A DNA stretch of 64,000 nucleotides, from positions 506,042-570,041 of the forward strand of contig OY969557.1 of NCBI GenBank assembly GCA_963701025.1. Reading direction: 5' to 3'. A program made the position numbers and the translations under genes. Shown here in pieces: positions 485 through 26,340 of this stretch (positions are counted from its first letter, which is position 1; every line of letters starts with the position of its first letter). The notes under the pieces were generated by a model that did not search any database, had not been told where the DNA came from, and saw only the letters and a list, made by a program, of their open reading frames with translations. Source of the stretch: an uncultured bacterium. GTDB taxonomy: Bacteria; Patescibacteriota; Minisyncoccia; Phycocordibacterales; PALSA-1337.

Positions 485-2725
485 TCACTTGGGATTGATA
501 TACCTTCTTGTAATAGGCCCGAAATATCCGGTAGCGGGAATACTATGTTCTCTCTGAAATCTCACGAGGGTTTTCTTGGTCAAAGAGCCGAAAAAAGCGG
601 TTTCTTTGCCCGGGGAGCCGGAACCTGCGGCAGACAGGACATACCCGTGGCTATTGAGGTATTGTTGCAGGCTTTTAACGTCATCTCCGATATCCCCTAT
701 TGAAAGGTTCCGAGAGAAGATAGCTGGAGTGCAAGAGAAGCCCGAAGGACAACTAAGCACTGGTTGCAGGGCGAGACCGAGAGATACCAATGTTGAGAGA
801 TTGACATGACCACCACTCGAACCAGAATATACTGCTGTTGGAGCAGGATTGGCCGTATTGGTAGAACAGGTGGAGGTATTGAATGTAAGACCCGTGCTTG
901 AAGCTGCGCCTGTGGAATTAACAGCAAATGCTCTGAAGTAATAGCTGGTGCCGCAGGTGAGACTATTTACGCCTATCGAGAACAAGCCTGTGGGATAGTT
1001 GCCGGTCGTCGAGGCAATAGTTCCATATGAACCTGTATTTCCATATTCAAAGCCCCTTATTGTGGGGTTGACACCTCCTGTGTTTTCAATGGATCCATTG
1101 AGAGTTGCGGATGTTTGAGTCGCAGAAGATACGGGAAAAGCAATGATCGTCGGCACCGTGGTACTTGAGATAAATGTTCCCTCTCCGCTATAGGCTATGC
1201 CTTCAGGGTTAATCGCATAAGCCCTAAAATAATAGGTAGTATCTGGAGTGAGGCCAGTAAGGCTGACTGTGAATGATGTACCTGAGCCAAAGTCTCCCGT
1301 CTCAGGCGTGGTGGTGGCCCCGTAGCTTGAATCGGTACCATAGACGAAGCCATGTTCCGTGCTGTCAGCGGCACCAGTATTGTCGATGGAGCCGTCAATG
1401 GTAGCGGAGGTTTGGGTTATCGAATACGCCGAAGATGCACTTAAGGTAGGAATAAGGGAAGTAAAAAAAGTCTCCTCTGGACTATAGGCTAGACCTTCCG
1501 GACCTATGGCATAAGCTCTAAAGTGATAAGTGGTATTCGCGAGGAGGCCGCTAATATCGGCGGTAAATCCACCCACACCGAATTCTCCCGTTTCCGGCGT
1601 GGTGGTGGCCCCGTAGCTTGAATCGGTACCATAGACGAAGCCACGTTCTGTGGCATTTGCCCCTCCTATGTCATCGATGGAACCATTGAGGGTGAATGTA
1701 GAATAAACATCCTGAGCGCCATCGTTTGAGACGGCGACGGGAGTTTTAGTGAACTTTATAACGACATCCGAGAATGGGTCAGTTACATACAGATTATCGT
1801 CTGAATCTCGTGCCATTGCGCCATATGCATATATGTTTGGTCCAAAATTCCGCACAAAATTCTCGCTTAGATTAAACTCGACGATCCTATTATTAACGAT
1901 ATCCGCAATGTAGATATTGTTACTGCTATCAGTCGTAATACCGAATGGCGCAGAATATAATCCGATAAATTGGCCACCACCTGTTCCATACGAACCAAAC
2001 GCGGATAAGTAGTTGCCATTTGAGTCGAATTTCAGCACTCTTGATTTCAAAGAGCCATTATATCCGTCCGTAACATAGATGTTACCGAGTGAATCGGAAA
2101 CGATGCCGTATGGATTGAGAAACTCGTCATCTCCTGTCCCATAATGTCCCCATGACAGCAAGATATTCCCATTTGAATCGTATTTTTGTATCCGATCATC
2201 AACATAATTCGCGATATATACGTTATCTGAAGGATCAATTGCGATGCCATACGGCGGAGAGAAGTGGGTATTTGATTGCGAGCTAAGATCTCCCCATGAT
2301 AAGACGAAATTTCCGGAATCATCGAATTTCTTGACTGAACGATGAGCCGTATCGATCACATATATATGATCAGTTGAATCGATGGCTATACCGTAAGGAT
2401 TACCTATGCTGGTGGGGAAATATTCGGAATCCGCGCTATTGCTTCCAAATTGAGAGTCCCCGTCGCCATATGATCCCCATTCAAGCAGAAAATTACCGTT
2501 TGAATCGAACTTTTGTATACGGCCATTCATCGAATCCGCTACAAAGATATTTTTGGAAGAATCAACAGCTATCGCTATTGGTCGATCAAATTGACCCGGA
2601 TCTGTTCCGGGTGATCCAAAGGTGCTTATAGAATATGATGCTTGGGCTCTATCGGCTAAACAAAAAGTCCCTATAAAAAATACGGCGAACAAGATGCGTG
2701 AAATCGTACAATTATTTTTGATCAT
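485..2725 (-). CDS. Secreted NHL-repeat protein with three Fn3-like repeats and a C-terminal PG_binding_1-like peptidoglycan-binding domain
   Basis: There is an N-terminal signal peptide (MIKNNCTISRILFAVFFIGTFCLA) and multiple NHL-type repeats (YGIAIDSS.NIFVAD..N.RIQKFDSNGNF). Three roughly 90-aa Fn3-like repeats follow. The C-terminus (VKSLQQYLNSHGY...TGYFGPITRRYIN) matches the PG_binding_1 pattern. The likely start is the Met at 2725; the ORF runs to 2752. Confidence 0.7.
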   Translation of the reverse strand: MIKNNCTISRILFAVFFIGTFCLADRAQASYSISTFGSPGTDPGQFDRPIAIAVDSSKNIFVADSMNGRIQKFDSNGNFLLEWGSYGDGDSQFGSNSADSEYFPTSIGNPYGIAIDSTDHIYVIDTAHRSVKKFDDSGNFVLSWGDLSSQSNTHFSPPYGIAIDPSDNVYIANYVDDRIQKYDSNGNILLSWGHYGTGDDEFLNPYGIVSDSLGNIYVTDGYNGSLKSRVLKFDSNGNYLSAFGSYGTGGGQFIGLYSAPFGITTDSSNNIYIADIVNNRIVEFNLSENFVRNFGPNIYAYGAMARDSDDNLYVTDPFSDVVIKFTKTPVAVSNDGAQDVYSTFTLNGSIDDIGGANATERGFVYGTDSSYGATTTPETGEFGVGGFTADISGLLANTTYHFRAYAIGPEGLAYSPEETFFTSLIPTLSASSAYSITQTSATIDGSIDNTGAADSTEHGFVYGTDSSYGATTTPETGDFGSGTSFTVSLTGLTPDTTYYFRAYAINPEGIAYSGEGTFISSTTVPTIIAFPVSSATQTSATLNGSIENTGGVNPTIRGFEYGNTGSYGTIASTTGNYPTGLFSIGVNSLTCGTSYYFRAFAVNSTGAASSTGLTFNTSTCSTNTANPAPTAVYSGSSGGHVNLSTLVSLGLALQPVLSCPSGFSCTPAIFSRNLSIGDIGDDVKSLQQYLNSHGYVLSAAGSGSPGKETAFFGSLTKKTLVRFQREHSIPATGYFGPITRRYINPK

Positions 2726-2772
2726 GAAGACCGCCTGACTCATTACCGGCATCTAGATTGTAACATATGCCT

Positions 2773-3177
2773 TTATTCCGGTTTTCTTTCCCTCTCTCTT
2801 CTTTCTACTTCGTCTTCATCAAGGCCGAAATGATGAGCTACCTCATGCCAGACGGTCTCCTCTATGACTTGACGCACGGAAAGGCCGTCTTCTCGGGCGG
2901 CGCGGATGATGGGCAGACGATATAAGGTTATCTTGTCGGGCAGGTTGCCGTAACCATAGCCTTCGCCGCGAGCAGAAAGCGGCAGGCCGTGATACAGACC
3001 GAGAAGAGTCTCATTGTCCGGTAATTTCATATTCTTCCGGGTCGGCTCGTCAGGCTCTTCCTCAATAGTGATAGCCACATTGGCGATCATGGATCGGAAC
3101 TTGTCAGGCACGGGCGAGAAGCCGACGGAGGAGACGAGTTCTTCAAATTCGCCGTAGGACATAGATTCGGAGACCAT
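2773..3177 (-). CDS. Zincin-like metallopeptidase family protein (DUF1025/Zincin_1-like)
   Basis: An HExxH motif (WHEVAHHFG) sits in a roughly 130-aa acidic protein. The gene is co-oriented 20 nt upstream of the NHL protein gene. Confidence 0.5.
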   Translation of the reverse strand: MVSESMSYGEFEELVSSVGFSPVPDKFRSMIANVAITIEEEPDEPTRKNMKLPDNETLLGLYHGLPLSARGEGYGYGNLPDKITLYRLPIIRAAREDGLSVRQVIEETVWHEVAHHFGLDEDEVERRERERKPE

Positions 3178-3258
3178 GCGGAAAGTATATCAGTTTGACA
3201 AAATCTTTATACGCGCTAGCTTGTAGGCAAACAACGAACCATTGACAAAGGGGTTACC

Positions 3259-3705
3259 ATGAACGGAACATATGTGACTTTCGGGGAGATGCGCGCGCGG
3301 TTGGAGATCGACCTTATCGGCGGTTGCGTCGAAGTCCCGATGGCCGGCAAAATACATCGTGGCAGGCTCGATGACATCGATTGGTGGGAGATCGGGCACC
3401 CGCGTCGGATAGAATGGACGGAGGCCTTGATCTGGAACGACAAGTGGGCGTATTGGGAAGGAGCTACCGAAGGCTACCTCGATTTTCCCAAATCCAGCTA
3501 CGACTTCTTTGACGGTCCGTATCAAGCCGACAGCGGGGAATTCTTCTTTCTTTGTTACGGATGCAAGAGGACGCCCTATGTCACCGTCTTTCCGCGCGGA
3601 CTGGAGGCACCTGAATTTCCGGCCGACATGACGGCTTACTTCAAGCTTCATCAAAAAATAATGGGTCTTGACGATGAAAGGCTCAAAGCCGTGTTACGAA
3701 GATAA
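3259..3705 (+). CDS. Hypothetical Trp-rich protein
   Basis: An SD-like AAAGGGG lies 7 nt upstream of the ATG. A strong rho-independent terminator sits immediately downstream. It is preferred over the overlapping minus-strand ORF 3190..3654. Confidence 0.45.
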   Translation: MNGTYVTFGEMRARLEIDLIGGCVEVPMAGKIHRGRLDDIDWWEIGHPRRIEWTEALIWNDKWAYWEGATEGYLDFPKSSYDFFDGPYQADSGEFFFLCYGCKRTPYVTVFPRGLEAPEFPADMTAYFKLHQKIMGLDDERLKAVLRR

Positions 3706-3707
3706 GG

Positions 3708-3741
3708 CCGCTTCAAAAGCATGAAGCGGTCTTTTTTATTT
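3708..3741 (+). terminator. Rho-independent terminator
   Basis: Hairpin CCGCTTCA-aaagca-TGAAGCGG followed by TCTTTTTTATTTT. Confidence 0.6.
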
Positions 3742-4881
3742 TCCTTGCCGGCTTCGCGCGTCATTATGGCCCGTATCGTTTGTATTGCCGTCGTTGCGTC
3801 CGTGGTCGTTGCGCGCCGAAACGTCTTCGCCGCTTGCCCGGGCGGATGCCGCCAAATTGAGGATCGGGGCCGCTTCCTGGTCGAATAATCCGCTATCATG
3901 GGAATGCGTGCTTCTATCCGTTTCGCCGGACGTGCTGGAAGCAACCGTCGTATGAGCCTCGACTATCGTATTTTCAGTGCTCGTTGAGATTGTCTCATCG
4001 GCGCTTGTCGTGCCGGCGAATAACGCCGGATGAGCGATGGTGGTAGTGGAAGCATATCTCCCTAGAGACACAGATAATGTCGTACTTCCCTCCATGGTAT
4101 CTTTTCTCCGGTTATTATTCGAAGCCATTTCAGGCCTTCTATTAGATCTATCGCCGTATGAATGCGTAGCGACAGTAGCCGTCGAGCTCGCATGCGCCAC
4201 AGTCGTGGAGGATAATTCAGCGAGAGCCTCTTCAGTCGTCGTCCCGATGAGTGCGTCCAAATGCCGCGCGCGCTCGTTCATCCGTGCTTGGAAATCGATA
4301 CTGATCTTTTGGGCTGTCTGCGGATCAGACGACGCCACGGCGGCAAGAGCGATATTCAGTACCTGCGTATGAGCTACTATCAGATCCGAGAGTTCGGTCT
4401 GTTTCGCATGGTCGAGCTTGTTTTCCGCGGCAAGCGTCTCGCCCTCCTGCACGCGTCTATCGGTGAAATCAGCGGCAAGTTGCGCCTTGGACTCGGCTGA
4501 CGGTGCAATGGCGATGCGCAACGGCTCCGTCACGTCGACTTTAACAGGGTACAGAAGGTCACCCGGCAAGCTACTCTCCGCGGCGAGGGCGACGCCGCTT
4601 CCCGCGAGACTCATGATGAGAACTGCTATGACGGCATATGACCAGCGGTTGCGATCGATCCACGCGCTGAAAGAATACATAGTCCACGGGCTTTTGACTG
4701 GGGCCGCGGGCAATGGCCTGCGAGGCGCCGATGCGGGAGAATCGGACATGATCCTCGATAGCATGGCTTTCTTTTCTTCAGCAGTCATACTAACGCTCCT
4801 GATGATCCCCAGGGCTTTATCGAAATATGTATTGAAATCTCTGTCGGATTGTGGGTGGTTGTTATTCATGGCGGTTTTCAT
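3736..4881 (-). CDS. Membrane-anchored anti-sigma factor (DUF5667-like, PGDLLYPVK motif), Ser/Thr-rich C-terminal region
   Basis: The start overlaps the sigma factor stop (ATGA). There is one TM helix (AVIAVLIMSLAGSGVALAA) followed by a PGDLLYPVKV DUF5667-type motif. Confidence 0.55.
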   Translation of the reverse strand: MKTAMNNNHPQSDRDFNTYFDKALGIIRSVSMTAEEKKAMLSRIMSDSPASAPRRPLPAAPVKSPWTMYSFSAWIDRNRWSYAVIAVLIMSLAGSGVALAAESSLPGDLLYPVKVDVTEPLRIAIAPSAESKAQLAADFTDRRVQEGETLAAENKLDHAKQTELSDLIVAHTQVLNIALAAVASSDPQTAQKISIDFQARMNERARHLDALIGTTTEEALAELSSTTVAHASSTATVATHSYGDRSNRRPEMASNNNRRKDTMEGSTTLSVSLGRYASTTTIAHPALFAGTTSADETISTSTENTIVEAHTTVASSTSGETDRSTHSHDSGLFDQEAAPILNLAASARASGEDVSARNDHGRNDGNTNDTGHNDARSRQGK

Positions 4882-5450
4882 TCGTGTCTCTCGCGTTTGT
4901 CTCTCTGATCTTTTCCGGAAGGACTGTCATACCCGGCAAGACGCCGAAGTTCCTGTAATCCCCTGTTGATTCGAACTGACGCCGCGTTGGCCGTTATCCC
5001 GAGGATCTCGCCGATATCCGGCGGTGCGAGCCCTTCGACGAAACGCAAGTAAACGGCTTGCCTGTTCCCCGGACTCATTTCCCTTAGCTTTACCAGGAGG
5101 TATCGTCCTTCGGCGTCCATTTCCAAGTCGGCATAGTCTTTGCCGTCAGCCGGCTCGAAGTTTCCGTCGTTGTCAGGATTGAGCGCGTCTTCGACGGAGC
5201 TGAACGAGACGGCTTTTTTCTTACGATACCAGTCGATGATAAGACGGTGAGCGACCGTGAAGAGAAAAGCCTTCTCATTGTCTATACGCGTGCCGCGTGA
5301 CACGGTCTGCCACATGCGGCTGAAGGTCTCTTGGACGATGTCCAATGCCTGCTCACGGTCGGAGACTCGTACCAGGCAGAATCGGAATATGGAGTCGGCT
5401 TCAGCCTCATAGCAAGCGGTGAAGCGGCGTTGTAAGGATTCTTGATTCAT
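4878..5450 (-). CDS. ECF-family RNA polymerase sigma-70 factor
   Basis: Region 2 (DIVQETFSRMWQ) and region 4 (PGNRQAVYLRFVEGLAPPDIGEILGITANAASVRINRGLQELRR) are recognisable. The probable start is the Met at 5450; the ORF extends to 5504. Confidence 0.8.
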   Translation of the reverse strand: MNQESLQRRFTACYEAEADSIFRFCLVRVSDREQALDIVQETFSRMWQTVSRGTRIDNEKAFLFTVAHRLIIDWYRKKKAVSFSSVEDALNPDNDGNFEPADGKDYADLEMDAEGRYLLVKLREMSPGNRQAVYLRFVEGLAPPDIGEILGITANAASVRINRGLQELRRLAGYDSPSGKDQRDKRERHE

Positions 5451-5502
5451 GCGTAAAGACGGACAACGAGCCTGATTCTTACGAAAAAATACGGCTCTCA
5501 CC

Positions 5503-5548
5503 ATAAAAATACAACAGATGGAACGCGCCGTCCATAGCGGTTTTTATT
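5503..5548. terminator. Terminator hairpin after rplE (end of the truncated spc operon)
   Basis: ATGGAACGCGCCGTCCAT hairpin with T-rich flanks on both strands, immediately downstream of the rplE stop. Confidence 0.4.
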
Positions 5549-5566
5549 CTCCAAATATGTCAAAAA

Positions 5567-6127
5567 TCATTTCTTCGCCTTCTCCTCTTCCCTCTTCAGC
5601 GGCAATCCCAGATATTCCAAAAACGCTAAGGTGGTCTTCTTATCATGAGAAGTAGTGACGAGGGTGATACCCATACCGAAGACATCTTTCAAGTCCTCGT
5701 CCGATGTCTCGGCGAATATGGTGTGCTCCTTGACTCCGATAGTGTAATTGCCCATGGCGTCGACGGCAGTGCGGGGCAGACCGCGGAAGTCCTTGGTGCG
5801 GGGCAGAGCGATATTGATCAGGCGATCCATGAACTCGTCCATGCGCCTGCCACGGAGCGTGACCTGATAGGCGAGCGGGTCGCCGAGTCGCGTCTTGAAA
5901 GTAGCGATGGCTTTCTTGGCCACGCGTAGGGCCGGCTTTTGGCCGGTGATGCGGGACATGCGGTCGGCGATGAGATCGATCTTCTTCTTGTCCTTGACCG
6001 AGCCGAAGCCGGTGCCGACGACGACTTTGGAGAGGCGCGGGGCCTGCATCGGATTCTCGAGATGCAACTTGTCCTTCAGGGCTTTGAAGGATTCTTTATT
6101 GAGTTCTTGGACGGTTTTATGTGCCAT
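5567..6127 (-). CDS. rplE: 50S ribosomal protein L5
   Basis: Full-length uL5 sequence at the conserved position after rplX. Confidence 0.95.
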   Translation of the reverse strand: MAHKTVQELNKESFKALKDKLHLENPMQAPRLSKVVVGTGFGSVKDKKKIDLIADRMSRITGQKPALRVAKKAIATFKTRLGDPLAYQVTLRGRRMDEFMDRLINIALPRTKDFRGLPRTAVDAMGNYTIGVKEHTIFAETSDEDLKDVFGMGITLVTTSHDKKTTLAFLEYLGLPLKREEEKAKK

Positions 6128-6169
6128 GTTTTTTCTTAAATCGTAAATCTCATTTCCTGCATCTTCGGG

Positions 6170-6385
6170 TTAAATCTTTGCGACCTTGGAAGCAAAGATC
6201 GGCATGGCGCGATTGACGATCTGGCCTTTTTGATCCTGCCTCTTCCCTCGCTCGTGGCGTTTTACCATGTTCACCCCCTCGATGAGGATCTTGCCCTCGG
6301 CGGGAAAAGACTGGACAACCTTGCCGGTCTTGCCCTTGTCGTCGCCCGAGAGGATCTTCACCATGTCGCCGGTCTTGATATGCAT
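6170..6385 (-). CDS. rplX: 50S ribosomal protein L24
   Basis: KOW-domain uL24 (GDMVKILSGDDKGKTGKV). Confidence 0.95.
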   Translation of the reverse strand: MHIKTGDMVKILSGDDKGKTGKVVQSFPAEGKILIEGVNMVKRHERGKRQDQKGQIVNRAMPIFASKVAKI

Positions 6386-6430
6386 AGGAGTGAGTATGAA
6401 AGTATAAAGTATGCGGGTATGAGTGTATGG

Positions 6431-6802
6431 CTACACGATCTCTGCGGCGCGGGAAGCGATGGTCTTGAAGCCTGCTTCCGCCACTTCTCTGGGAATAGGC
6501 CCGAATACGCGCCCGGCTATCGGCTCTTTCTTGTCTTTCTCGATGATGACGACCGCGTTCTCGTCGAAACGTATGTATGAGCCGTCCTTCCGGCGGCTGG
6601 CCTTGGTCTGGCGGACGACGACCGCGTGGAGGACGTCTTTCTTCTTGACTGTCTTTCTCGGCTCGGCCTTCTGTACCGATAGGACCACTACTTCGCCTAG
6701 TTCGGCATAGCGCTTCTTGGAAGCGCCGAGCACCTTGAAGATGCGCCCGACCTTGGCACCGGAATTGTCCGCGATCTTGACTATGGAGCGGGGTTGGATC
6801 AT
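6431..6802 (-). CDS. rplN: 50S ribosomal protein L14
   Basis: MIQPRSIVKIADNSGAK... canonical uL14. Confidence 0.95.
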   Translation of the reverse strand: MIQPRSIVKIADNSGAKVGRIFKVLGASKKRYAELGEVVVLSVQKAEPRKTVKKKDVLHAVVVRQTKASRRKDGSYIRFDENAVVIIEKDKKEPIAGRVFGPIPREVAEAGFKTIASRAAEIV

Positions 6803-6832
6803 GGAGGTTAGGGTAGAGGGTGTAGGGTATAG

Positions 6833-7090
6833 TTAGGCAATCACTTTGAAGGCTTTGTTCTTCGACATCGGCCTGCAGGACTCGATAGTCGCCGTGTCAC
6901 CGATCTTCTTGGTATTGCCGGGATCATGCGCCATGAGCTTGGTCCTCTTGGTCTGGAACTTGTGATACTTTGCATGCTTGACGTAGCGCTCGATGACTAC
7001 TACCGTCGTGTCTTTCATTTTGTCCGACGAAACGACGCCGGTGAATGTCTGGCGTATCGTCTTTTGTTCGGCTGTTTTGGCGGTTGGCAT
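6833..7090 (-). CDS. rpsQ: 30S ribosomal protein S17
   Basis: Conserved uS17 sequence and operon position. Confidence 0.95.
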   Translation of the reverse strand: MPTAKTAEQKTIRQTFTGVVSSDKMKDTTVVVIERYVKHAKYHKFQTKRTKLMAHDPGNTKKIGDTATIESCRPMSKNKAFKVIA

Positions 7091-7151
7091 GTGAGCGCTG
7101 ATACTACTTGAAGTTTGTTGAAATGTCTAGCTAAAGGGAAACGGAAAATTT

Positions 7152-7358
7152 TTATTTTTGATTTTCTATCTTTACATTCATCGCCGTCAATATCCTGGCG
7201 ATGTCTTTCCGTATGGCCCTGCCCTCTTTTACATTCTTGGTCTTGGATCCCGTGGCGCCGAAACGGAATATGCGCAAAGACTCGCGCTTGTCGGCCGCGA
7301 GCTTAGCCAGGTCGGCTGGAGTCTTGCTGGTTATGTCCTTCATCTGTATAGCTTTCGT
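7152..7358 (-). CDS. rpmC: 50S ribosomal protein L29
   Basis: uL29-like 68-aa product starting at the internal Met (MTKAIQMKDITSKTPADL...). The ORF is open to 7400. Confidence 0.85.
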   Translation of the reverse strand, partial: TKAIQMKDITSKTPADLAKLAADKRESLRIFRFGATGSKTKNVKEGRAIRKDIARILTAMNVKIENQK

Positions 7359-7451
7359 CATAGAAAAAAGCTCGGTCGAGCTGTCCCGCCATGCTAACAA
7401 AAACGCGCCGGGGAGTCAAGGCGCGCCTGTGTTACGGGATATTATGCTCTT

Positions 7452-10421: not shown

Positions 10422-10450
10422 ACCCTATCACACCTAGTAGTGCGTGTCAA
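10422..10450 (-). promoter_or_regulatory. Putative sigma70-like promoter for the 975-aa surface protein gene
   Basis: Minus-strand TTGACA, a 17-nt spacer, then TAGGGT, about 45 nt upstream of the ORF start. Confidence 0.3.
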
Positions 10451-12519: not shown

Positions 12520-12669
12520 GTTCAATGAAAAATGCTCGAAGCGAGCGTGGAAGCCATAGTATCAGAGCCGGATTGGAGAGTCAAGAGAATGGCTAAGATA
12601 AAGGATGGGTAATAAAAAGCCGGGCCCATTTCTGAACCCAGCAACTGTGCTAAACCTGATTTTCAGCGA

Positions 12670-14058: not shown

Positions 14059-14067
14059 TGCTATAAT
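14059..14067 (+). promoter_or_regulatory. Extended -10 element (TGCTATAAT) upstream of the histidine kinase gene
   Basis: TGnTATAAT lies about 25 nt upstream of the ATG at 14090. Confidence 0.4.
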
Positions 14068-14089
14068 TCCCCCACCAGTCTCTTTCTCC

Positions 14090-14908: not shown

Positions 14909-14934
14909 ACGATAGGCGTGAGGTGCGCCGACAA

Positions 14935-15786
14935 CTAGAGCTTGGTCTTCTTCTTGCCGACTTGACGTCTGGAAACAATGAAGACGTTGGAATACTTCTT
15001 GGGCGTGCGGGTCTTCTGGCCCTTGCCGGCGGGCTTGCCCCAGCGGGTCTTGAGGCGGCGCAGACCGCGGCCGGTCCTCTGCTCGCCGCCGCCGTACGGG
15101 TGGTCGACGGGGTTCTGGGCCGAGCCGCGGACAGTCGGGCGTATGCCCATCCAACGGGTGCGTCCCGCTTTGCCGATATTGACCAGGCGATTCTCTTCGT
15201 TGGAGACGGCGCCTATGGTGGCCCAAGCGTCTTCATGGACCTTGCGGACTTCTGAAGACGGCATCTTGATGTGGGTGTAGCTCGCGTCATTGGCGACCAC
15301 CTGGCCGAACGATCCGGCCGAGCGGACAAGCTTGGCTCCGGAACCAGGTTTGATCTCGATGTTGAAGACGAAGGTGCCTACCGGGATCTTTTTGAGCGGC
15401 AAACGGTTGCCGGTCTCGATGGGAGCTGATTCGGACACCATGAATGAATTGCCTACTTTCATCGTTTTTGGCAGGAGGACATAGCGCTTTTCGCCGTCTT
15501 TGTAAGCGACGAGGCCGATATAGCCGGTGCGGAAAGGATCGTACTCGACGGTCTTGACCGTGGCGCGTATGCCTTTCTTGTCATAATTGAAATCGATCTT
15601 GCGATAAAGCTTGGCATGACCTCCGCCCTTGTGGCGGACGGTGATGCGGCCGAAGGAATTGCGTCCCATGTCGCGCTTCCAGCCATGGGTCAGAGGCTTG
15701 TACGGTTCCGACGCGGTCAAGTACTGCTTGAACGGCAGTACCGTCATATGGCGGCGAGATTTAGTTGTGGGGCGGAAGCTTTTCAT
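14935..15786 (-). CDS. rplB: 50S ribosomal protein L2
   Basis: Canonical uL2. Confidence 0.95.
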   Translation of the reverse strand: MKSFRPTTKSRRHMTVLPFKQYLTASEPYKPLTHGWKRDMGRNSFGRITVRHKGGGHAKLYRKIDFNYDKKGIRATVKTVEYDPFRTGYIGLVAYKDGEKRYVLLPKTMKVGNSFMVSESAPIETGNRLPLKKIPVGTFVFNIEIKPGSGAKLVRSAGSFGQVVANDASYTHIKMPSSEVRKVHEDAWATIGAVSNEENRLVNIGKAGRTRWMGIRPTVRGSAQNPVDHPYGGGEQRTGRGLRRLKTRWGKPAGKGQKTRTPKKYSNVFIVSRRQVGKKKTKL

Positions 15787-17063: not shown

Positions 17064-17153
17064 GAAAGAAAAAAGCTCTTGCGAGTCGTGCCGAGCATAG
17101 TAGCAGAGCCGTGAAGGAGAGTCAACAGCTAGGTGAAAGGCGCTGGCAGAAAT

Positions 17154-17236: not shown

Positions 17237-17545
17237 ATGAAAGTCATGCCGACAGAAGAAGTAGATGCCTTCATAGAGACCTGTGAGAAAAGGGTCCGTG
17301 CCAAAATCAGCAGACGTTTTCTAATGCTTGAAAAGTTTGGTCCTATGATCCGTATGCCTTATAGCAGATATATTCTCCCTGGAGTTTTTGAGCTTCGTAC
17401 AACAGGAAAAGACAACGTGCGGCTAGTTTATGCATTTATAAACGATAAGGCGGTCGTGTTCTATGCGTTTATAAAAAAGACCGAGGAGATAAGCGCCCAC
17501 GAGATAGGCTTAATAAAACAAAAGCTTAAGAACTTGCATTTATGA
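17237..17545 (+). CDS. Type II toxin, Gp49/RelE-like (HigB-like, DUF891 family)
   Basis: About 100 aa, toxin-first order, overlapping an XRE-HTH partner by ATGA. Confidence 0.6.
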   Translation: MKVMPTEEVDAFIETCEKRVRAKISRRFLMLEKFGPMIRMPYSRYILPGVFELRTTGKDNVRLVYAFINDKAVVFYAFIKKTEEISAHEIGLIKQKLKNLHL

Positions 17546-17847
17546 CTTATACGGCATATACTACCTTTATGAAAACAGTAAATTGGAGAGAGAGGCATGA
17601 GAAAGACATGGAAGACCCTGAATACAGAAGGGAGTGGGATGCTCTTGGGCTCGAATTCGATATTATCCACGCCATCATCCGCAAACGCATCAAGGACGAC
17701 ATGACCCAAGCCCAGTTGGCCAAAAAGATGCGCACCGGCCAGGCGACTATTTCGCGTTTGGAGTCTGGAACCTACAATCCTTCAGTGAAATTCCTTCGCA
17801 GACTGGCCAAGGCGTTAGACGCGGAGCTCACGATCAGGTTGGTGTGA
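17542..17847 (+). CDS. XRE-family HTH antitoxin (HigA-like)
   Basis: HTH motif (MTQAQLAKKMRTGQATISRLESG) and a 4-nt overlap with the upstream toxin. Confidence 0.7.
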   Translation: MTYTAYTTFMKTVNWRERHEKDMEDPEYRREWDALGLEFDIIHAIIRKRIKDDMTQAQLAKKMRTGQATISRLESGTYNPSVKFLRRLAKALDAELTIRLV

Positions 17848-18568: not shown

Positions 18569-18988
18569 CTACATCATCTTGACGTCGATGTTCACTCCCG
18601 ATGGCAAGCTCAAGTTCGTGAGAGCTTCGATGACTTTCGGGTTCGGGTTGATGATATCGATGAGCCGCTTGTGTACTCGCATCTCGAACTGCTCGCGGGC
18701 GTTCTTGTCGATGAAAGACGAACGGTTGACGGTGTATTTCTTGATCTCCGTTGGCAATGGCACCGGACCGAGGATTTCGACGTCATAACGCGACGCGGTA
18801 TCCATGATCTGGCGCAGGCTGGCATCCAGGATCTTGTGCTCGTAGGCACGAACGCGGATGCGCAAGTGAGGCAGGGCGCCTTCAGGCTTGGCCTTCTTGG
18901 CCCGGGGTGCTTTCAGCGCCGAAGCCTTCGAGGCGACTGCCGGCTTTGAATGGACCTCCTTCTTGGTTGTGGTCTTGGCTGTAGGCAT
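18569..18988 (-). CDS. rpsJ: 30S ribosomal protein S10 with a roughly 40-aa Lys/Ala-rich N-terminal extension
   Basis: The uS10 core begins at LRIRVRAYEHK. It is preceded by an AK-rich tail. Confidence 0.9.
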   Translation of the reverse strand: MPTAKTTTKKEVHSKPAVASKASALKAPRAKKAKPEGALPHLRIRVRAYEHKILDASLRQIMDTASRYDVEILGPVPLPTEIKKYTVNRSSFIDKNAREQFEMRVHKRLIDIINPNPKVIEALTNLSLPSGVNIDVKMM

Positions 18989-19068
18989 GATATGTAATCC
19001 TAATCTACGAATCTCATCCGAATGCCGCGAATATTCGTTGTATTCGTGCGATTATTCGTAGATTCGCA

Positions 19069-20256
19069 TTAAGCAATGATCTTGGTGACCACTCCGGCAC
19101 CGACGGTCTTGCCTCCTTCACGGACGGCGAAACGCATCTTTTCCTCGAGGGCGACGGGCGCGACGAGCTTGACCTTGAAAGTGACGGTGTCGCCCGGCAT
19201 GACCATCTCGACCTTCTCGGCGAGGGTCACTTCTCCGGTGACGTCGGTGGTGCGGATATAGAACTGGGGCTTGTAGCCGGTGAAGAACGGGGTGTGGCGG
19301 CCTCCCTCTTCCTTCTTCAAGACGTAGACTTCAGACTCAAATTCGGTGTGAGGCTTGACGGAACCGGGCTTGGCCAATACCTGGCCGCGGGATACATCGT
19401 CCTTGGCGGTGCCGCGCAGAAGCACGCCGGCGTTGTCGCCCGCCATGCCTTCCTTCAGGGACTTGTTGAACATCTCGATGCCGGTCATGACGGTCTTGGT
19501 GGTGTCGCGGAAGCCGACGATCTCGACTTCCTCGCCGACCTTGACCTTTCCGCGCTCGATGCGGCCGGTCACGACCGTGCCGCGGCCTTCGATGGAGAAG
19601 ATGTCCTCGATCGGCATGAGGAACGGCTTGTCAGTCTCGCGAACGGGCTCGGGGATATAAGTGTCGAGGGCGGCCATGAGCTCGTCGATCTTGGCTGTCC
19701 ATTCGGCCTTGCCTTCGAGGGCGCCGGTGGCCGAACCGCGGATGACCGGGACATTCTTGCCGTCGAACTGGTTCTTGGTCAGGAGCTCGCGCACTTCCTC
19801 TTCGACCAGGTCGATGAGGTCTTTTTCCGGTACGATGTCGCACTTGTTGAGGAATACCACGATCTTCGGCACGCCAACCTGGCGGGCCAGAAGGACGTGC
19901 TCGCGGGTCTGCGGCATGACGCCGTCAGTGGCGGAAACGACCAAGATGGCCCCGTCCATCTGGGCGGCGCCGGTGATCATGTTCTTGATGAAGTCGGCGT
20001 GTCCCGGACAGTCGATGTGGGCGTAGTGGCGGGTCGGAGTCTCGTACTCGACGTGCGAGAGCGATATGGTAACGGTCTTGGTGGCATCGCGGACGGTGCC
20101 TCCTTTGGTGATGTCCGCGTAGGCCTTGACGTTGGCCAGGCCTTTCTTGGCCTGGACGGCCAAGATAGCGGCGGTCAAAGTCGACTTGCCGTGGTCGATG
20201 TGACCGATGGTGCCGACGTTGACGTGCGGCTTGGTGCGATTGAATTCTGCTGCCAT
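19069..20256 (-). CDS. tuf: Elongation factor Tu
   Basis: [16 protein letters not shown] and NKCD motifs. Full length, 395 aa. Confidence 0.98.
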
Positions 20257-20447
20257 AGTATTTGCTTAGTGCTTTGGCTTGTGGCGCGTGGTCCGCAGGT
20301 AAGCGGGCGAAGCGTCAAGAGCCAAAGATAATGTTGTTAATAGTTAATAAAGCGCCGGGTAGGCGTATGGGGAAGAGCATAGCATATGCCCCAAAAACGC
20401 GCAAATCTTCTGAGTACACCCGCTTTAGTTGACTAAAGCGCCTTATA

Positions 20448-21902
20448 TTATTGGACGATATTGAACACTCCATCGCTCGAATCGCAATTACTTGTGCCTG
20501 ATTGACAGATCTGGACGCTATATTGGCCGTCGGGAACGGTACCGACGTCACCGGTTCCACCATTACCATTTATATTACTGTATTGGCCCACATCCCAACT
20601 ATATGAATCCTGGTTGATTGCTATGCCTGTAGCTATCGTATATGGCGCGAGCATATACATCGGACACATCGAACCGGCCGGGCACGGTGCTTGATACGGC
20701 ACGAGCTTCAAGTCAGCCGTCGTTGCGGCGAAATAATACGGCGATGTCCAGACGATATTCTGCGTCGTTCCACGCGCCCACGCTTCTCCGCCGTTGGGAG
20801 AGATTATTCTCAAAGGACTAACCGCCGTTGAACCGGTGACATTGACCGTCGAGGTCGTTTGAGCTTGCAGACCCGCATTATCCCTGACAGTGAAAGTGAT
20901 CATGTATGTGCCTGGGTTCGAATAGACGTGAGTGAAGGAAGTACTCTGGATGAAAGCCATCGCCATAGCAGGAGTGGCGCAGGTCGCCGGATAGTTGCAA
21001 TTCGGCGAATCTCCCCAATTCACGGAATAACTCAATACCCCATTGGCCGGATCGCTGGCGTGAATAGTCCATGTGCCCGTCTGATTGACAGAGAGCGACG
21101 TCGGCGCATCTATGCCGCTAATGACCGGCGTTTGACCATTCGTTACCCCATTCGTAGTGATCGTGAAATAATTATCGCTGTCATCGCACTGCGAACCATT
21201 CGTGAGACAAATCTGGATCTTGTATTGGCCAGAGGCTATTGGCGTCATTTGATCAGGACAAGATGTCGCGAACGCATCACATGGTATTGCCAAAGGTACT
21301 GAATTTCCAACATTCCAGGCATACGAATCAGAACCAAGGTTGACCCCGCTCGCAATAGTCAGAGGCGCACGCACCGCGATCATGCATCTGATCGGCTGAC
21401 CGGGCTCCGCACAGGCCGGCACAGGAAATTCAAGTCTGATGTCTCCCGTCTGATTGAGCGCGCCCGGCGTGCCGGTCCACGTGATGTACTGCGTCGTTCC
21501 GGTTTGCCACGTCTCGCCGCCATTTGGCGAAATGACTCGGAGAAAATCGGTCGGATTGTTATCGTTGTTACCGCCGCCGTTCAATATCTGGCGGGTCAAG
21601 GGCCCAAAGAAGCCGAAGGCCGGAAGACTGACGGATGTCTGATATCTGATGAGAGCGGCTTTGGTCTGCGAGCCGAAGTAGCCTTTTGCGGCACTGCCGG
21701 AACTGATGGCCGGTATGTCATAGCCGTTCGAGATGAGCCACGTCTGGAGATTGACCACATCCTGCCCGGAACTGCCGACGGTTAAGTTGTTCGAGAATGT
21801 GTAGTCTTGGGCATAGACGCTCGATTTGGCGCCGGCGACAAGGGCGATAGCGATAATGGCAATGGCAACGGCAATGGCGGTAAAAATGAGATATTTTTTC
21901 AT
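20448..21902 (-). CDS. Secreted surface protein with N-terminal PG_binding_1-like domain, repeated beta-sandwich modules (ISPNGGE.W..GTTQ.I.W) and a PKD-like domain
   Basis: Probable start MKKYLIFTAIAVAIAIIAIALVAG (signal/TM); the ORF is open to 22007. PG-binding pattern LTVGSSGQDVVNLQTWLISNGY...FGPLTRQIL. PKD-like segment YSVNWGDSP. Confidence 0.7.
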   Translation of the reverse strand: MKKYLIFTAIAVAIAIIAIALVAGAKSSVYAQDYTFSNNLTVGSSGQDVVNLQTWLISNGYDIPAISSGSAAKGYFGSQTKAALIRYQTSVSLPAFGFFGPLTRQILNGGGNNDNNPTDFLRVISPNGGETWQTGTTQYITWTGTPGALNQTGDIRLEFPVPACAEPGQPIRCMIAVRAPLTIASGVNLGSDSYAWNVGNSVPLAIPCDAFATSCPDQMTPIASGQYKIQICLTNGSQCDDSDNYFTITTNGVTNGQTPVISGIDAPTSLSVNQTGTWTIHASDPANGVLSYSVNWGDSPNCNYPATCATPAMAMAFIQSTSFTHVYSNPGTYMITFTVRDNAGLQAQTTSTVNVTGSTAVSPLRIISPNGGEAWARGTTQNIVWTSPYYFAATTADLKLVPYQAPCPAGSMCPMYMLAPYTIATGIAINQDSYSWDVGQYSNINGNGGTGDVGTVPDGQYSVQICQSGTSNCDSSDGVFNIVQ

Positions 21903-22023
21903 GCTGATGATGACGGATGAAATGGATAATTGTTTCAGACCAATGATAGCTCCTAATCGCCAAAATAGGAAGAGAAAACCGCCCCGAGGAGGGCGGCTTT
22001 CTGACACAAGAGCTTATTCGCTA

Positions 22024-25000
22024 TTAATGAGTCGCGTACCACTGATTGACCGCCGCATTGACGGCGTCCCAGATGGAGGCGGTGTAGTTTGTTTGCGGCA
22101 ACAAGGCCGTCGCGCTCACTCGAAGTCCGCTAAGCCCTTGGGTAATGGAACTCGCTTGAAGGCTGCTCGGGCTCGTTCCGTAATTTATCTGGTTGACCTG
22201 GAAAGAGGAGAAGCCTGCAGTGCCCGAAGACATGATCGTGCCATTGTAGGTGAACTGACGAGATGAACCGGCGGGGATGACGTAAGAACCATTGCTAGCT
22301 GTCGGATTGGTATCACCGGACAGGTTACCCGGGTTCGTTATAACGCCGGCAATAGGTAGATTCAGTGTGGCAGGTCCTGTGTTCGTGATACCGAGGGATG
22401 TGGACGGATTTGAACTGATATATATGGTGCTGTTAGCGGCAGTAAGCGTGAAGGAGTAGCTGACGTTATAACCAGTGGTGATAGCGACGCCACCGACATT
22501 GCTCGTGATCGGCGAACCGAGGACGGCTGATGTATTGCTGACTTGGACCACACTAGAGACGAATGTGATGGGGCTCCCGCTAAGATTTGCATTTGTCACT
22601 TGGACGGTATTGTACGACTGATCCACGATCACAACATTCGAGTTATTAGCCGCAAGGCTTACCGTAGCGCTGGAACCGTTTAGGGCACCACTTGAATCAG
22701 CGGCAACTGTACCAGAGATGGTGACCGGAATATTGCTACTAGCCGGCAACGGGATACTGATATTGGTGAACGAAACAGACGAACCATTGATAGAGCTTGC
22801 CGAGTAAGTGAGGCCGCCAGCCTTGACCTGGATATCGGAGAATAGGCTAGAAACGGAAGCGCCAGTCGTGTTTATGTTCACATTGAGAGAGTTGAGGGTA
22901 GCGGGTGCGTTCTGGACATTGATGTCGAAGACAGCGAGAGGAACATTATTAGTCTGGGCCGTGGTCGATATTTGTACCATGCCCGCAAGCGGCGAGGAGG
23001 CGTCAAGCGAGAGGGTGGCCGTTGCGGGATTGTTGGTATTTCCAGAAGTTACAGTGAAGGAATTAGACATGGCTTGAGCGCAGGAATAATTCGTACATGG
23101 GGCACCTTGATTGGTACGCTGAACAACCTGTACAAAATAAGATCCTGCTGGAACACTAGAAGGGATAATGAATGATACCGTCTGTTGATTTCCACTTATG
23201 CCAGTTACATTACCGAGTGCATAGATTGGTGATCCCTCTCCTCCAGCATAATCCAGGTTAATCAGATATTGATCTCCCTGTGATGGATTAGAGAACGTGA
23301 CACTCAACTGACTGCCAACTTGAAAAGTTTGTCCTCCTGTTGGAGACACGATACCTACACTTGGTGCATTACCAGTTATAGTCACGTTAAATTCTCCACA
23401 GCTTGTTGTGCTTATGTATGCGCCCGCAGGACAAACAGCTATAGTATATGTACCGTTTGGAATGTTAGAGATCCCTTTCCAATTACCTGATGCTGAGCCG
23501 ACATTCCACTGGAACCAACCACTATTCGGGTACGATGAGGCGAATGGATAATAAGTACTTCCAATCTCAAGATAAATATCGACGGTGGATACATTTCCAG
23601 AAGATGTCCATGTCCATGATCCAAGAGTGGATTGTTGCCAAGTGACACTACTTGAAGGAGAGGTGATTTTGATAGATGACTGGGTGGTCGTCACGGTCAC
23701 CGGCGCGGGAGTGATCGATGAAGCCGGAATCTGCGCCGTCAGAGACGTTCCATCGGTGAATTGGACATAGAGAGTACCACCGGGGAATTGCGAGCGTTCC
23801 GGCTGGCCGTACATGGACAATGTGTGCGTTCCGGCCGTGAAGGATAGCGGTACGTCATAGCTGTGGTTAAGCTGGACGCCATTCTCGTATATCACCAACG
23901 GATAGAGTCCGAAGGCCGATCCGGTGAACCAGCGTTCCCAATTATTACCGTCAGACAGATATATCCATTGAGCGGTCTTCGCCGTCGGCAGAGTCATGAC
24001 GGCGGTCCAATCCCAATCGTTCGAGGTGAAGCCTGTGCCGTTCGACGTGCCCGGTCCGAGAATGCCATATGTGCCGGCCATGTCGCTCGAAGCGCTGGCT
24101 ACGTAAGCATATAGGGATCCCTGCGACTGCGTGGTAGACGGAGCCGGGGCCGGAAAACCGGTTTGATAGGAGCAGGTATAGCCAGCGGGACATGATGGGG
24201 TCGTATTCGTGCTTCCAACCTGTACCGAAGCGCTCGTATGCGCGGTCAGGCCGGCGGCATTTTGAACAGTAAAGACGACATTGTAAGTTCCGGCCATTTT
24301 GTAGACATGACTGAAAGTCGATGTCTGGACGGATGAGCTCTTCATCGCGGAAGGTGTTAGCGCTTCGACGATGGTATCGCCCCAATTGACCGAGTAGGTC
24401 AATGAGCCATTCTGCGGATCGGACGCATTGACCGTCCACGTGCCCATCTGGCCGACATTGAGAGATGTCGGGAATGTGCCGCCGGAGATGACGGGGGGTT
24501 GAGGAGCAGTAGTCTGCGCCAGCGTGATCGTGAAATAATTGTCGCTCGAGTCATGGATCCCTATGACTGCAGGATTGCCATAATCGGAAGCCAACAGGAC
24601 TTTATATTGCCCGGCAATGATGGTTCTCGGAATATTGGTACATTGATAATTCTTACCGAGAGTAGCCGTGAAATAACCTTGGCTGACCGGAGCGCTTCCT
24701 AACAAGCATGTTCCACCATCAGCAAAATTAAGGTAGACATACACATTCCCTGTGAGACCTGATGATATCCATGTCGTCCTAAAATCTACATTTTTCACAC
24801 CGAGACTTATTTGTTCCCCTCCATTGGGATAGGTAACGGTGATGGAAGGCTGGGTGGTGCCTAATGGATTAACAACAAGACTACCGGTCGTTAACTTATT
24901 ATTGTTCGAGTCATACACATAAACCGTGTATTGACCGATAGCAAGCGCCGGCGATACAGTCACTGACCAATTACCGTTTATGACTGAAATCAAACCGCTA

Positions 25001-26340
25001 CCATATATCTTGTCACCGCCATTGCTCCCACTTAAAACAATTCCGACTTGAGTCGTACCATTAGCTGTACCCGATATAGTGGGTGTCAAAGAAGTGGTCT
25101 GCACGCTACTGGTGATAGTGGCAGATGATTGAGTTTGCACGCCACCGAATGTCACCGTGACTTGGAGACTTTGCAGGCCGGAGGTGATAGAGTACCCATT
25201 AACATTGTTTGGATTTGTACTGTAATTGATATCTGCAACCTGAACAATATTGGCTCCGCCAACCGTAGCGGAAGCACTACTCACCGTACCGTTAAATGTA
25301 AACTGGCGTGAAGCGCCCGGAGGAATCATCCAGTAGCTCGATGTGTCGCCAGCCAAAGAGGCTGGGTTCGCCATTATAGCACCTTTATCTGGGCTTGCAT
25401 TCCCATTCTTACTGGCAAAGTCAAGCATTATCGCGCTGGTGAGATATATCGGACTATTCCCTGCCGTCAGGGTGAAGGCAAAAGTAACTGGATAACTTGA
25501 GATGATTCCATTGGTTCCAACAGTAGGTGATCCAAGTGAAGCAGATGTATTGCTGACTTGAACACCGTTGTTGCTGACGGTAGAAGACGCTAGAGTGAAG
25601 TTATTACTTAAACCTTTTATAACAATAAATCCTTTCTCGTTATTAGTATTTACAGGCACGATTACGTGTGCCTCGATGTCTACTTCATATTGGCCTGGAG
25701 AAATTGGATATCCTTGCACGATCTCCGGCAGAGTAGTGTTCCAAGAAAATTGTCCGCTGCTTGCATTCAGACCGCTTGCAATCTCATCCACAATGACACC
25801 ATTAGCACTATTAACAAGATATATATACGTCTCAGAGTTAGAGGGAATATTTTGTGTCGACCATTGAATTGTAAAATTCTGACCTTGTGTAATAGTCTCT
25901 CCTCCTTTTGGATTCACAACCGTTACCGACGATTGTGTCGGATTCGTCGTTGTGCACGATCCATTGAGCGCGGCGCGAGTCAGGGCTCCGAAATATCCGG
26001 TAGCCGGGATGCCAACGCTGGCCTGATATTTGGCCACAGCGCCGGCGGTCTGGTAGCTGTAGACGCCTCTCTGCTGGCGGCCGGAAGACAAAGCCGGGAT
26101 ATCGAAACCGTTGCCCAAAAGCCACGTCTGCAAAGCGACGACGTCAGGACCCCTGCTGCCTATGGTCAGGTTAGTCGACCAGACATAGCAGGAAGAAGCT
26201 CCTCCGCCCCCACCGCCTACCGACACGGGAGTCGATATCGGCGCAATGACTTGGGCTTGTACCGAGACATACGAAAAAGCAACGATCGCGAGAGAGAATG
26301 CCGCGACCGGAACGACGAGCGAGAACAAGGCTCTTTTCAT
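22024..26340 (-). CDS. Giant secreted surface protein (1438 aa) with N-terminal PG_binding_1-like domain, long Ser/Thr/Asn-rich beta-repeat region and a PKD-like domain
   Basis: Signal peptide. PG-binding pattern (GSRGPDVVALQTWLLGNGF...GYFGALTRAAL). YSVNWGDT PKD-like motif. Paralogous architecture to the 20448-21902 gene. Confidence 0.75.
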   Translation of the reverse strand: MKRALFSLVVPVAAFSLAIVAFSYVSVQAQVIAPISTPVSVGGGGGGASSCYVWSTNLTIGSRGPDVVALQTWLLGNGFDIPALSSGRQQRGVYSYQTAGAVAKYQASVGIPATGYFGALTRAALNGSCTTTNPTQSSVTVVNPKGGETITQGQNFTIQWSTQNIPSNSETYIYLVNSANGVIVDEIASGLNASSGQFSWNTTLPEIVQGYPISPGQYEVDIEAHVIVPVNTNNEKGFIVIKGLSNNFTLASSTVSNNGVQVSNTSASLGSPTVGTNGIISSYPVTFAFTLTAGNSPIYLTSAIMLDFASKNGNASPDKGAIMANPASLAGDTSSYWMIPPGASRQFTFNGTVSSASATVGGANIVQVADINYSTNPNNVNGYSITSGLQSLQVTVTFGGVQTQSSATITSSVQTTSLTPTISGTANGTTQVGIVLSGSNGGDKIYGSGLISVINGNWSVTVSPALAIGQYTVYVYDSNNNKLTTGSLVVNPLGTTQPSITVTYPNGGEQISLGVKNVDFRTTWISSGLTGNVYVYLNFADGGTCLLGSAPVSQGYFTATLGKNYQCTNIPRTIIAGQYKVLLASDYGNPAVIGIHDSSDNYFTITLAQTTAPQPPVISGGTFPTSLNVGQMGTWTVNASDPQNGSLTYSVNWGDTIVEALTPSAMKSSSVQTSTFSHVYKMAGTYNVVFTVQNAAGLTAHTSASVQVGSTNTTPSCPAGYTCSYQTGFPAPAPSTTQSQGSLYAYVASASSDMAGTYGILGPGTSNGTGFTSNDWDWTAVMTLPTAKTAQWIYLSDGNNWERWFTGSAFGLYPLVIYENGVQLNHSYDVPLSFTAGTHTLSMYGQPERSQFPGGTLYVQFTDGTSLTAQIPASSITPAPVTVTTTQSSIKITSPSSSVTWQQSTLGSWTWTSSGNVSTVDIYLEIGSTYYPFASSYPNSGWFQWNVGSASGNWKGISNIPNGTYTIAVCPAGAYISTTSCGEFNVTITGNAPSVGIVSPTGGQTFQVGSQLSVTFSNPSQGDQYLINLDYAGGEGSPIYALGNVTGISGNQQTVSFIIPSSVPAGSYFVQVVQRTNQGAPCTNYSCAQAMSNSFTVTSGNTNNPATATLSLDASSPLAGMVQISTTAQTNNVPLAVFDINVQNAPATLNSLNVNINTTGASVSSLFSDIQVKAGGLTYSASSINGSSVSFTNISIPLPASSNIPVTISGTVAADSSGALNGSSATVSLAANNSNVVIVDQSYNTVQVTNANLSGSPITFVSSVVQVSNTSAVLGSPITSNVGGVAITTGYNVSYSFTLTAANSTIYISSNPSTSLGITNTGPATLNLPIAGVITNPGNLSGDTNPTASNGSYVIPAGSSRQFTYNGTIMSSGTAGFSSFQVNQINYGTSPSSLQASSITQGLSGLRVSATALLPQTNYTASIWDAVNAAVNQWYATH

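Follow-up and report, generated by a model that had tools for sequence, protein, structure and literature searches.

Predicted wall- and membrane-tethered surface proteins encoded in the gaps of a fragmented ribosomal gene cluster in a Patescibacteria genome

In the window analysed here, a stretch of 64,000 nucleotides (nt) from an uncultured bacterium (assembly GCA_963701025.1, contig OY969557.1, positions 506,042 to 570,041), genes for very large, apparently secreted proteins stand among the genes of the str, S10 and spc ribosomal clusters, which raises the question of whether they belong to these operons or merely occupy gaps between them. All positions below are those of the window. A preliminary description, made from the sequence alone, had listed four such open reading frames (ORFs), and all four are present on the minus strand: a protein with NHL repeats (485–2752), and proteins of 975 amino acids (aa; 7452–10379), 484 aa (20448–21902) and 1438 aa (22024–26340). 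The third had been given as 485 aa; the ORF is borne out, but that length counts the stop codon. The gene order agrees with the earlier placement of the 975-aa gene between rplP and rpmC, and of the 1438-aa and 484-aa genes between fusA and tuf on the operon strand. The probable answer is that these are accessory envelope genes lodged in the gaps of a fragmented ribosomal cluster, transcribed as units of their own, and encoding surface proteins tethered to the wall or the membrane.

Domain architecture of the four proteins

The 484-aa protein comprises, in order, a predicted signal peptide, a PG_binding_1 domain, a Kre9-like β-sandwich, a PKD domain, and a second Kre9-like β-sandwich. The N-terminal PG_binding_1 (39.6 bits against a cutoff of 23) and the PKD domain are matched in Pfam, while Kre9_KNH stays below the Pfam threshold, the Kre9-like assignment being drawn from a conserved SPNGGE motif and from the structural model. 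In the AlphaFold2 (AF2) model, built on an alignment of 36 orthologues with a mean predicted local distance difference test (pLDDT) score of 80, a helical PG_binding_1 bundle is combined with three β-sandwiches; the bundle consists of helices 47–58, 64–67, 78–90, and 101–107, with pLDDT values of 88–96 over the block. The two Kre9-like domains contain eight cysteines (C164, C173, C232, C239, C407, C413, C466, and C473) that are either invariant or conserved to at least 90% among the 36 orthologues; this conservation fits an extracytoplasmic location. A Foldseek search with the model returned only tandem Ig and fibronectin type III (fn3) arrays, including adhesion molecules, the glycan-binding SGBP-B, macroglobulin domains, and the EA1 S-layer protein, and no enzyme-like fold. 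The hydrophobic N-terminal segment could also act as an uncleaved anchor.

This protein is a member of a large Patescibacteria family: 229 homologues fall within E≤1e-8, and many align over the full length with 55–63% identity. Family members such as P0123, P0131, and P0158 carry the NCBI names 'peptidoglycan-binding protein' or 'PKD domain-containing protein', and the 484-aa protein is a full-length orthologue with the family's order PG_binding_1, β-sandwich, PKD, β-sandwich. The 1438-aa protein shares its modules with relatives of 900–1500 aa that combine PG_binding_1 and PKD, although the size and domain order of this large partner change from genome to genome. The proteins belong or relate to Patescibacteria families that are already named, with no characterised member.

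In the 1438-aa protein, a predicted signal peptide precedes PG_binding_1, several Kre9_KNH-like β-sandwiches, a Big_13-like domain, and PKD. The N-terminal PG_binding_1 (37.7 bits, cutoff 23), PKD, and Kre9_KNH all exceed the Pfam thresholds. Furthermore, the N-terminal and C-terminal module is internally duplicated, and both ends match the same regions of the homologue L083_1358.

The NHL protein spans 755 aa from the first ATG and 745 aa from the likely start. It is composed of a predicted signal peptide, a six-bladed NHL propeller, three fn3-like domains, and a C-terminal PG_binding_1 (44.8 bits, cutoff 23). The NHL repeats reach 89 bits in Pfam (E 7e-26), and in a PDB sequence search the six blades (residues 44–334) align with the six-bladed propellers of TRIM71, Thin, PknD, and the designed Pizza6. 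Upstream of this gene, the spc operon ends after rplE and is followed at 2773–5567 by an extracytoplasmic function (ECF) sigma factor, a DUF5667 anti-sigma-like protein, and a zincin-like peptidase; the NHL gene may be controlled by the sigma factor and its anti-sigma partner. On the plus strand and convergent with it, an ORF at 6–401, cut by the window edge, encodes the C-terminal end of another Pur_ac_phosph_N (fn3-like) protein and would be a fifth surface-type protein.

The 975-aa protein has this length from a TTG codon and 972 aa from the ATG at 10370, which is probably the true start. A predicted signal peptide and a Ser/Thr/Pro-rich linker are followed by MBG_3, three HYR domains, two Bact_surface_Ig-like domains, a Gly/Ala/Ser/Asn-rich linker, and a C-terminal transmembrane anchor (transmembrane window at residues 939–969) ending in a basic RRMRA tail. 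Pfam supports Bact_surface_Ig-like with 105 bits, as well as MBG_3 and HYR, and contains no PG_binding_1 match for this protein. No LPXTG motif is visible, and no sorting domain of the sortase, exosortase (PEP-CTERM), or rhombosortase (GlyGly-CTERM) type is matched in NCBIfam or Pfam. Residues ~440–860 match modular HYR/Bact_surface_Ig-like/MBG surface proteins, which resemble giant adhesins and occur in many phyla, at 40–55% identity in tens of thousands of proteins, whereas the N-terminal 440 residues, the C-terminal linker, and the anchor have no counterpart among them.

The domain assignments of the preliminary description thus hold under profile searches: PG_binding_1 lies above the Pfam cutoff in three proteins (C-terminal in the NHL protein, N-terminal in the 484-aa and 1438-aa proteins), and the NHL, HYR/Ig-like, and PKD-like domains are all recovered by Pfam. 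The proposed secretion also agrees with the N-terminal features of all four proteins: in each, a basic n-region, a hydrophobic stretch of some 20 residues, and a site resembling A-x-A can be read from the sequence. Searches of Pfam, NCBIfam, and PDB sequences detected no catalytic domain, the four proteins have no SLH match in Pfam, and NCBIfam gave no family-level match; the weak CPR_pilus_PamR hit in NCBIfam, at 19.7 bits with a cutoff of 300, was set aside as reflecting generic similarity to PKD and fn3 domains.

PG_binding_1 (PF01471) is the wall-targeting module of SleB, of the Zn D-Ala-D-Ala carboxypeptidase, and of L,D-transpeptidases. The modules described here exceed the Pfam threshold, and the 484-aa model shows the same helical fold with pLDDT >90, but their fusion partners are Ig-like arrays without catalytic function or an NHL propeller instead of an enzyme. 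Similarly, the S-layer protein EA1 of Bacillus anthracis (PDB 8opr, Foldseek rank 49) resembles the 484-aa protein in joining a wall-binding module to tandem β-sandwiches; unlike S-layer proteins of this kind, the proteins of the window have no SLH domain, and the fold match is generic.

Conservation of the two insertions

The tuf and ribosomal proteins of the window are closest to those of Patescibacteria. The best tuf matches in GTDB are 81–85% identical, the closest named one being Candidatus Taylorbacteria at 84%, and Patescibacteria loci found later reach 88.6–90%; an exact search for the tuf of the window matched no record. The source contig measures 876 kb. Together with the remaining gene content (ComEC, RecJ, type IV pilus genes, and pilins), which fits a Patescibacteria genome, this points to a small-genome member of the Patescibacteria of a Paceibacteria-like class. 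The gaps between neighbouring ribosomal genes were measured by tblastn of the ribosomal proteins of the window onto 80 tuf-anchored loci.

The insertion between fusA (26564–28732, minus strand; intact in relatives) and tuf (19069–20256, minus strand; 85–90% identical to Patescibacteria tuf) is an old, clade-level feature, as judged from sequence comparison. The fusA–tuf gap measures 445–4954 bp in Paceibacteria-like relatives, whereas most non-Patescibacteria have 32–224 bp there; three exceed this, with 394, 783, and 5958 bp. In the three closest genomes recovered (L085, L088/L089, and L170; tuf 88.6–90% identical), the last gene of the fusA–tuf gap, next to tuf, encodes an orthologue of the 484-aa protein (57–62% identity). 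The rest of the gap in these genomes is filled by PG_binding_1/Kre9_KNH proteins of 388, 615, and 623 aa in L085, of 1058 and 233 aa in L088/L089, and of 1083 and 183 aa in L170. The tuf-proximal gene thus appears stable while its distal partner is remodelled, and a recurrence of this insertion in relatives, on which the preliminary description had made its case depend, is found.

In total, the 484-aa gene precedes tuf in three of the six contexts examined, and the other contexts differ. In L086, the orthologue precedes rpsL, and its surroundings are otherwise syntenic with the window; in L083, a large and small pair (1358 and 530 aa, the latter 61% identical to the 484-aa protein) is located elsewhere, as is a more distant homologue in L171. 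Homologues of the 1438-aa protein (P0002, P0003, and P0004) also occur in contexts outside ribosomal clusters. A strain-specific origin of the fusA–tuf insertion, considered on the basis of these contexts, was rejected, the 484-aa orthologues showing a conserved block.

In other relatives, the contents of the gaps vary and are often envelope-related. L004 has a pilin, a Kre9_KNH protein of 437 aa, and further proteins with signal peptides in its gaps, and L003 has a 1439-aa Big_7 protein with a C-terminal PG_binding_1. At positions 1–250 of L003, the apparent C-terminal end of a transposase, recognised by eye, lies upstream of a truncated 1438-aa-like ORF before tuf, which would suggest mobile-element activity at this junction. 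In L002, the fusA–tuf gap contains an 897-aa secreted protein with a PMT-family protein mannosyltransferase and a GT2 glycosyltransferase beside it (5122–9909), and the same PMT and GT2 pair adjoins P0003. These neighbours hint that the Ser/Thr-rich surface proteins are O-glycosylated.

The junction between rplP (L16; 10544–10969, minus strand; 60–84% identity to relatives) and rpmC (L29; 7152–7400 with a likely start at 7361, minus strand; identified from its translation and by tblastn against the rpmC of relatives) behaves differently. In all 61 related metagenome loci that hold both genes, rplP directly precedes rpmC with a gap of −62 to +96 bp, and tblastn gap mapping revealed no insertion at this junction in GTDB relatives. 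Neither word-based nor exhaustive HMMER searches found a full-length orthologue of the 975-aa protein, giving only repeat-domain matches over residues ~440–860, and a metagenome scan with the protein yielded no relatives. P0377, the sole hit of matching size, was rejected as an orthologue because it is a HYR/Ig array. No flanking repeats or target-site duplications were found around the gene. The rplP–rpmC insertion therefore looks genome-specific on the sequences compared, and for this gene the recurrence in relatives fails.

In 12 relatives (L003, L004, L112, L113, L122, L123, L126, L128, L139, L141, L144, and L148), the rplP–rpsQ gap of ~0–47 bp leaves no room for rpmC; L29 seems to have been lost or moved in part of the Patescibacteria radiation.

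Transcription signals and fragmentation of the ribosomal cluster

On the minus strand, the order of genes is rpsL, rpsG, a HigB-like toxin cassette, fusA, the 1438-aa and 484-aa ORFs, tuf, rpsJ, rplC, rplD, rplW, rplB, an interruption of 2.4 kb, rpsS, rplV, rpsC, rplP, the 975-aa ORF, rpmC, rpsQ, rplN, and rplE, followed by the ECF sigma factor, the anti-sigma protein, the zincin-like peptidase, and the NHL ORF (745/755 aa). The str–S10–spc cluster would accordingly be cut into short modules, namely rpsL-rpsG, fusA, tuf-rpsJ-rplC, rplD-rplW-rplB, rpsS-rplV-rpsC-rplP, and rpmC-rpsQ-rplN-(rplX)-rplE, most of them with a promoter-like site in front and with accessory genes in the spacers. The embedding of the surface genes in the str and S10 operons, as first described, stands as far as same-strand adjacency is concerned, but not in the sense of operons free of internal promoters and terminators, to judge from the signals below.

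An extended −10 pattern (TTGAC-N14–17-TGnTAnnAT) occurs five times in the window against 0.15 expected, and three of these sites directly precede ribosomal genes that follow an interruption, all on the minus strand: rpmC (7391–7419, just past the stop codon of the 975-aa gene), rpsS (12556–12584, after the rplB–rpsS interruption), and rplD (17097–17125, after an opposite-strand toxin–antitoxin pair). The same motif is found before tuf in seven relatives and before rpsS in five (L004, L009, L010, L011, and L040). In addition, putative promoters read from the sequence on the minus strand lie before the 975-aa gene (10422–10450; TTGACA, 17 nt, TG-n-TAGGGT) and before the 1438-aa gene, just past the fusA stop codon (26506–26533; extended −10 TGCTATAAT).

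Between the 1438-aa and 484-aa genes, a strong terminator-like hairpin on the minus strand (21973–22002) has 13 pairs, 7 of them G-C. In the spacer between the 484-aa gene and tuf (20262–20441, minus strand), the stop codon is immediately followed by a hairpin (20420–20441); a promoter-like TGCTATGCT and, before tuf, a conserved hairpin-forming leader are also present. This combination of hairpin, promoter, and leader between the 484-aa orthologue and tuf is repeated in L085, L088, and L170, and classical terminators stand at the equivalent place before tuf in L003 and L004. The leader itself (20262–20390; also in L085, L088, L089, and L170) can fold into a long hairpin in which three pairs are preserved by compensatory changes across five sequences; it matches nothing in Rfam and may have a regulatory or stabilising function as a 5' element. 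Meanwhile, the GC content at third codon positions (GC3) is 0.43, 0.51, 0.57, and 0.59 in the four surface genes versus 0.65–0.84 in the ribosomal-protein genes and tuf.

Opposite-strand genes also interrupt the cluster. A Gp49/HigB-type toxin and HTH_3 antitoxin pair (17237–17847, plus strand) lies between rplC and rplD, and a HisKA/HATPase_c histidine kinase (14090–14908, plus strand), convergent with rplB, occupies part of the rplB–rpsS interruption (12525–14935); these rule out a single transcript. The interruption also carries three minus-strand ORFs without assignment, and the 150-aa ORF (12670–13122) has homologues upstream of rpsS in L090 and L103. At this junction, the gap is 0.5–5.3 kb inside the clade, with variable genes (rplJ-rplL in L005), and at most 149 bp outside it.

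Each surface gene thus appears to be its own transcription unit, some read-through being possible. The fusA–tuf block would have been inherited vertically, with its distal large partner rapidly remodelled by domain shuffling, and the 975-aa gene would have been inserted in this genome, parting rplP from rpmC, which would then be driven by its own promoter. The earlier claim that the location guarantees high co-transcription with translation genes is contradicted by the promoter-like sites, the hairpins, the separate motifs of rpmC, rpsS, and rplD, and the low GC3, in so far as these signals can be read from sequence.

The pattern resembles the invasion and separation of ribosomal operon clusters, in which unrelated genes enter the spacers and the cluster later fragments, as outlined in two studies (PMC8046335, PMC6735719). 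The likeness lies in small unrelated gene sets in the spacers of the ribosomal cluster. The invaded sites in those studies are mostly between operons, in Gammaproteobacteria and Bacilli, whereas the breaks here also fall inside classical operons (fusA|tuf, rplC|rplD, rplB|rpsS, and rplP|rpmC), recur across the Patescibacteria clade, and are followed in three cases by extended −10 motifs. Literature searches found no paper describing the fusA–[PG-binding]–tuf block, and gave passing mentions only of ribosomal-operon insertions or of peptidoglycan-binding surface proteins in Patescibacteria.

Two further elements accompany the cluster. Between rpsG and fusA (28831–29439), a HigB/RelE-like toxin (28880–29161) and an upstream small ORF are flanked by 39-nt direct repeats (28831–28869 and 29401–29439) that are 85% identical and each hairpin-capable; this cassette, too, speaks against one continuous transcript. 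The tuf–rpsJ spacer (18988–19069) contains a CGAAT-rich imperfect palindrome (AATCTACGAAT...ATTCGTAGATT), a possible leader structure of the S10 genes. Elsewhere, a low-GC (0.42) Eco57I/MmeI-like type IIG restriction–modification gene (49210–52048) is perhaps frameshift-split from an ORF with an HSDR_N domain. Rfam and tRNA scans of the window found nothing.

Surface role and competing explanations

The four proteins are most likely envelope or adhesion proteins, three of them tethered to the cell's own wall, as their domain composition suggests. All four would be exported via Sec to the extracytoplasmic envelope, where PG_binding_1 would hold three of them non-covalently on peptidoglycan, most simply that of the cell itself, and the C-terminal membrane helix would anchor the 975-aa protein. 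The strings of Ig-like, PKD, HYR, and Kre9-like β-sandwiches, or the NHL propeller, would then be displayed outward, with a structural or adhesive role at the surface instead of an enzymatic one.

Several points weigh against this account. The promoter and terminator calls are consensus matches only, and the totals of sigma-70-like and terminator-like sites in the window do not exceed the shuffled expectation. The tuf promoter of the window is one base off the strict motif. The hairpin that follows the 484-aa gene is not accompanied by a T-tract, and no hairpin stands between the 975-aa gene and rpmC, so that read-through is possible at both places. Approximately one third of the 1438-aa protein, including residues 250–400 and 730–880, is without an assigned domain and could conceal an activity. 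Moreover, the adjacency of the 484-aa gene to tuf (or to rpsL in L086) could reflect selection for co-expression and not mere inheritance.

The competitor that survives best, although it is considered unlikely, regards the genes as true members of the str and S10 operons that supply highly expressed adhesins, used by an episymbiont to hold on to its host's peptidoglycan. The same strand and close spacing agree with it, as do the recurrence of the 484-aa family beside str-cluster genes (before tuf in three genomes, before rpsL in L086) and the missing terminator between the 975-aa gene and rpmC; cultivated Patescibacteria are moreover described as episymbionts in the literature. It is opposed by the promoter-like sites before the 1438-aa gene, the 975-aa gene, and tuf, by the motifs before rpmC, rpsS, and rplD, by the hairpins after the 1438-aa and 484-aa genes, and by a GC3 far below that of the neighbouring translation genes.

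The choice of wall is the second point at which this competitor and the tethered-envelope account part. Tethering to the cell's own wall is favoured because the binding module is terminal and next to the export signal, and because homologues adjoin peptidoglycan-synthesis genes (Mur ligase and penicillin-binding protein), a neighbourhood that makes it very likely that the lineage has a wall of its own. Methanogenic archaea lack peptidoglycan. Own-wall tethering is also favoured because such archaea are the reported hosts of two Paceibacteria/Parcubacteria lineages (PMC9763046), which at the same time speaks against a grip on host peptidoglycan. PG_binding_1 fits own-wall tethering at least as well as host-wall binding.

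More doubtful still is a stronger version of the envelope account, in which the 484-aa family would be a major wall-bound or S-layer-like component of this Paceibacteria clade, whose stable position directly before tuf or beside rpsL, along with a fast-evolving large partner, would be under selection to couple the supply of the coat to growth rate, and in which the broken ribosomal cluster would be a preferred landing pad for envelope genes; the two propositions are given this low standing jointly.

That the proteins are enzymes degrading or remodelling the cell's own wall or that of prey is very improbable. Homologues are annotated by JGI as 'peptidoglycan hydrolase-like protein with peptidoglycan-binding domain', wall hydrolases often contain PG_binding_1, and parts of the 1438-aa protein are free of assigned domains. 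The partial SleB matches, however, cover the binding module only and reach 16–23 bits against a cutoff of 236, the searches named above yield no catalytic domain, and the full 484-aa model appears as a PG_binding_1 bundle with β-sandwiches whose fold matches are non-enzymatic.

The fidelity of the assembly bears on a last alternative. The reading frame of fusA is disrupted by three 1-nt insertions near 27935, 27836, and 26998, and both the type IV pilus ATPase gene pilB (T2SSE/MshEN; 52048–53687) and the RNase Y gene rny (61888–63421) are split over overlapping ORFs in different frames. The Logan short-read contig L001 (run ERR11718638) covers 20314–26897 with 0 mismatches and one 1-nt indel, an extra T in the window at ~21970, just 3' of the 21973–22002 hairpin. 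These frameshifts and the extra T are probably indel errors of a long-read assembly, a pseudogene being the alternative for fusA; the four surface genes are unaffected, and L001 confirms two of them. That a chimera or assembly errors put the surface genes into the ribosomal cluster has the slightest chance of all, for although these frameshifts suggest an indel-prone assembly, the independent contig runs without a mismatch from the 3' end of fusA through both genes into the region before tuf, which makes a misassembly of this block unlikely, the same arrangement exists in three other genomes, and the 975-aa junctions show no repeats or breaks, though these lack independent read support.

If the account of accessory envelope genes in a fragmented cluster is true, a gene that neighbours ribosomal genes in Patescibacteria need not belong to their operon, since the cluster is divided into modules with apparent promoters of their own and its spacers gather accessory genes. 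The fusA–[PG-binding genes]–tuf block would then be a clade-level marker, and the 484-aa PG-binding family with its variable large partner would be candidates for components of the Paceibacteria envelope and of host contact.

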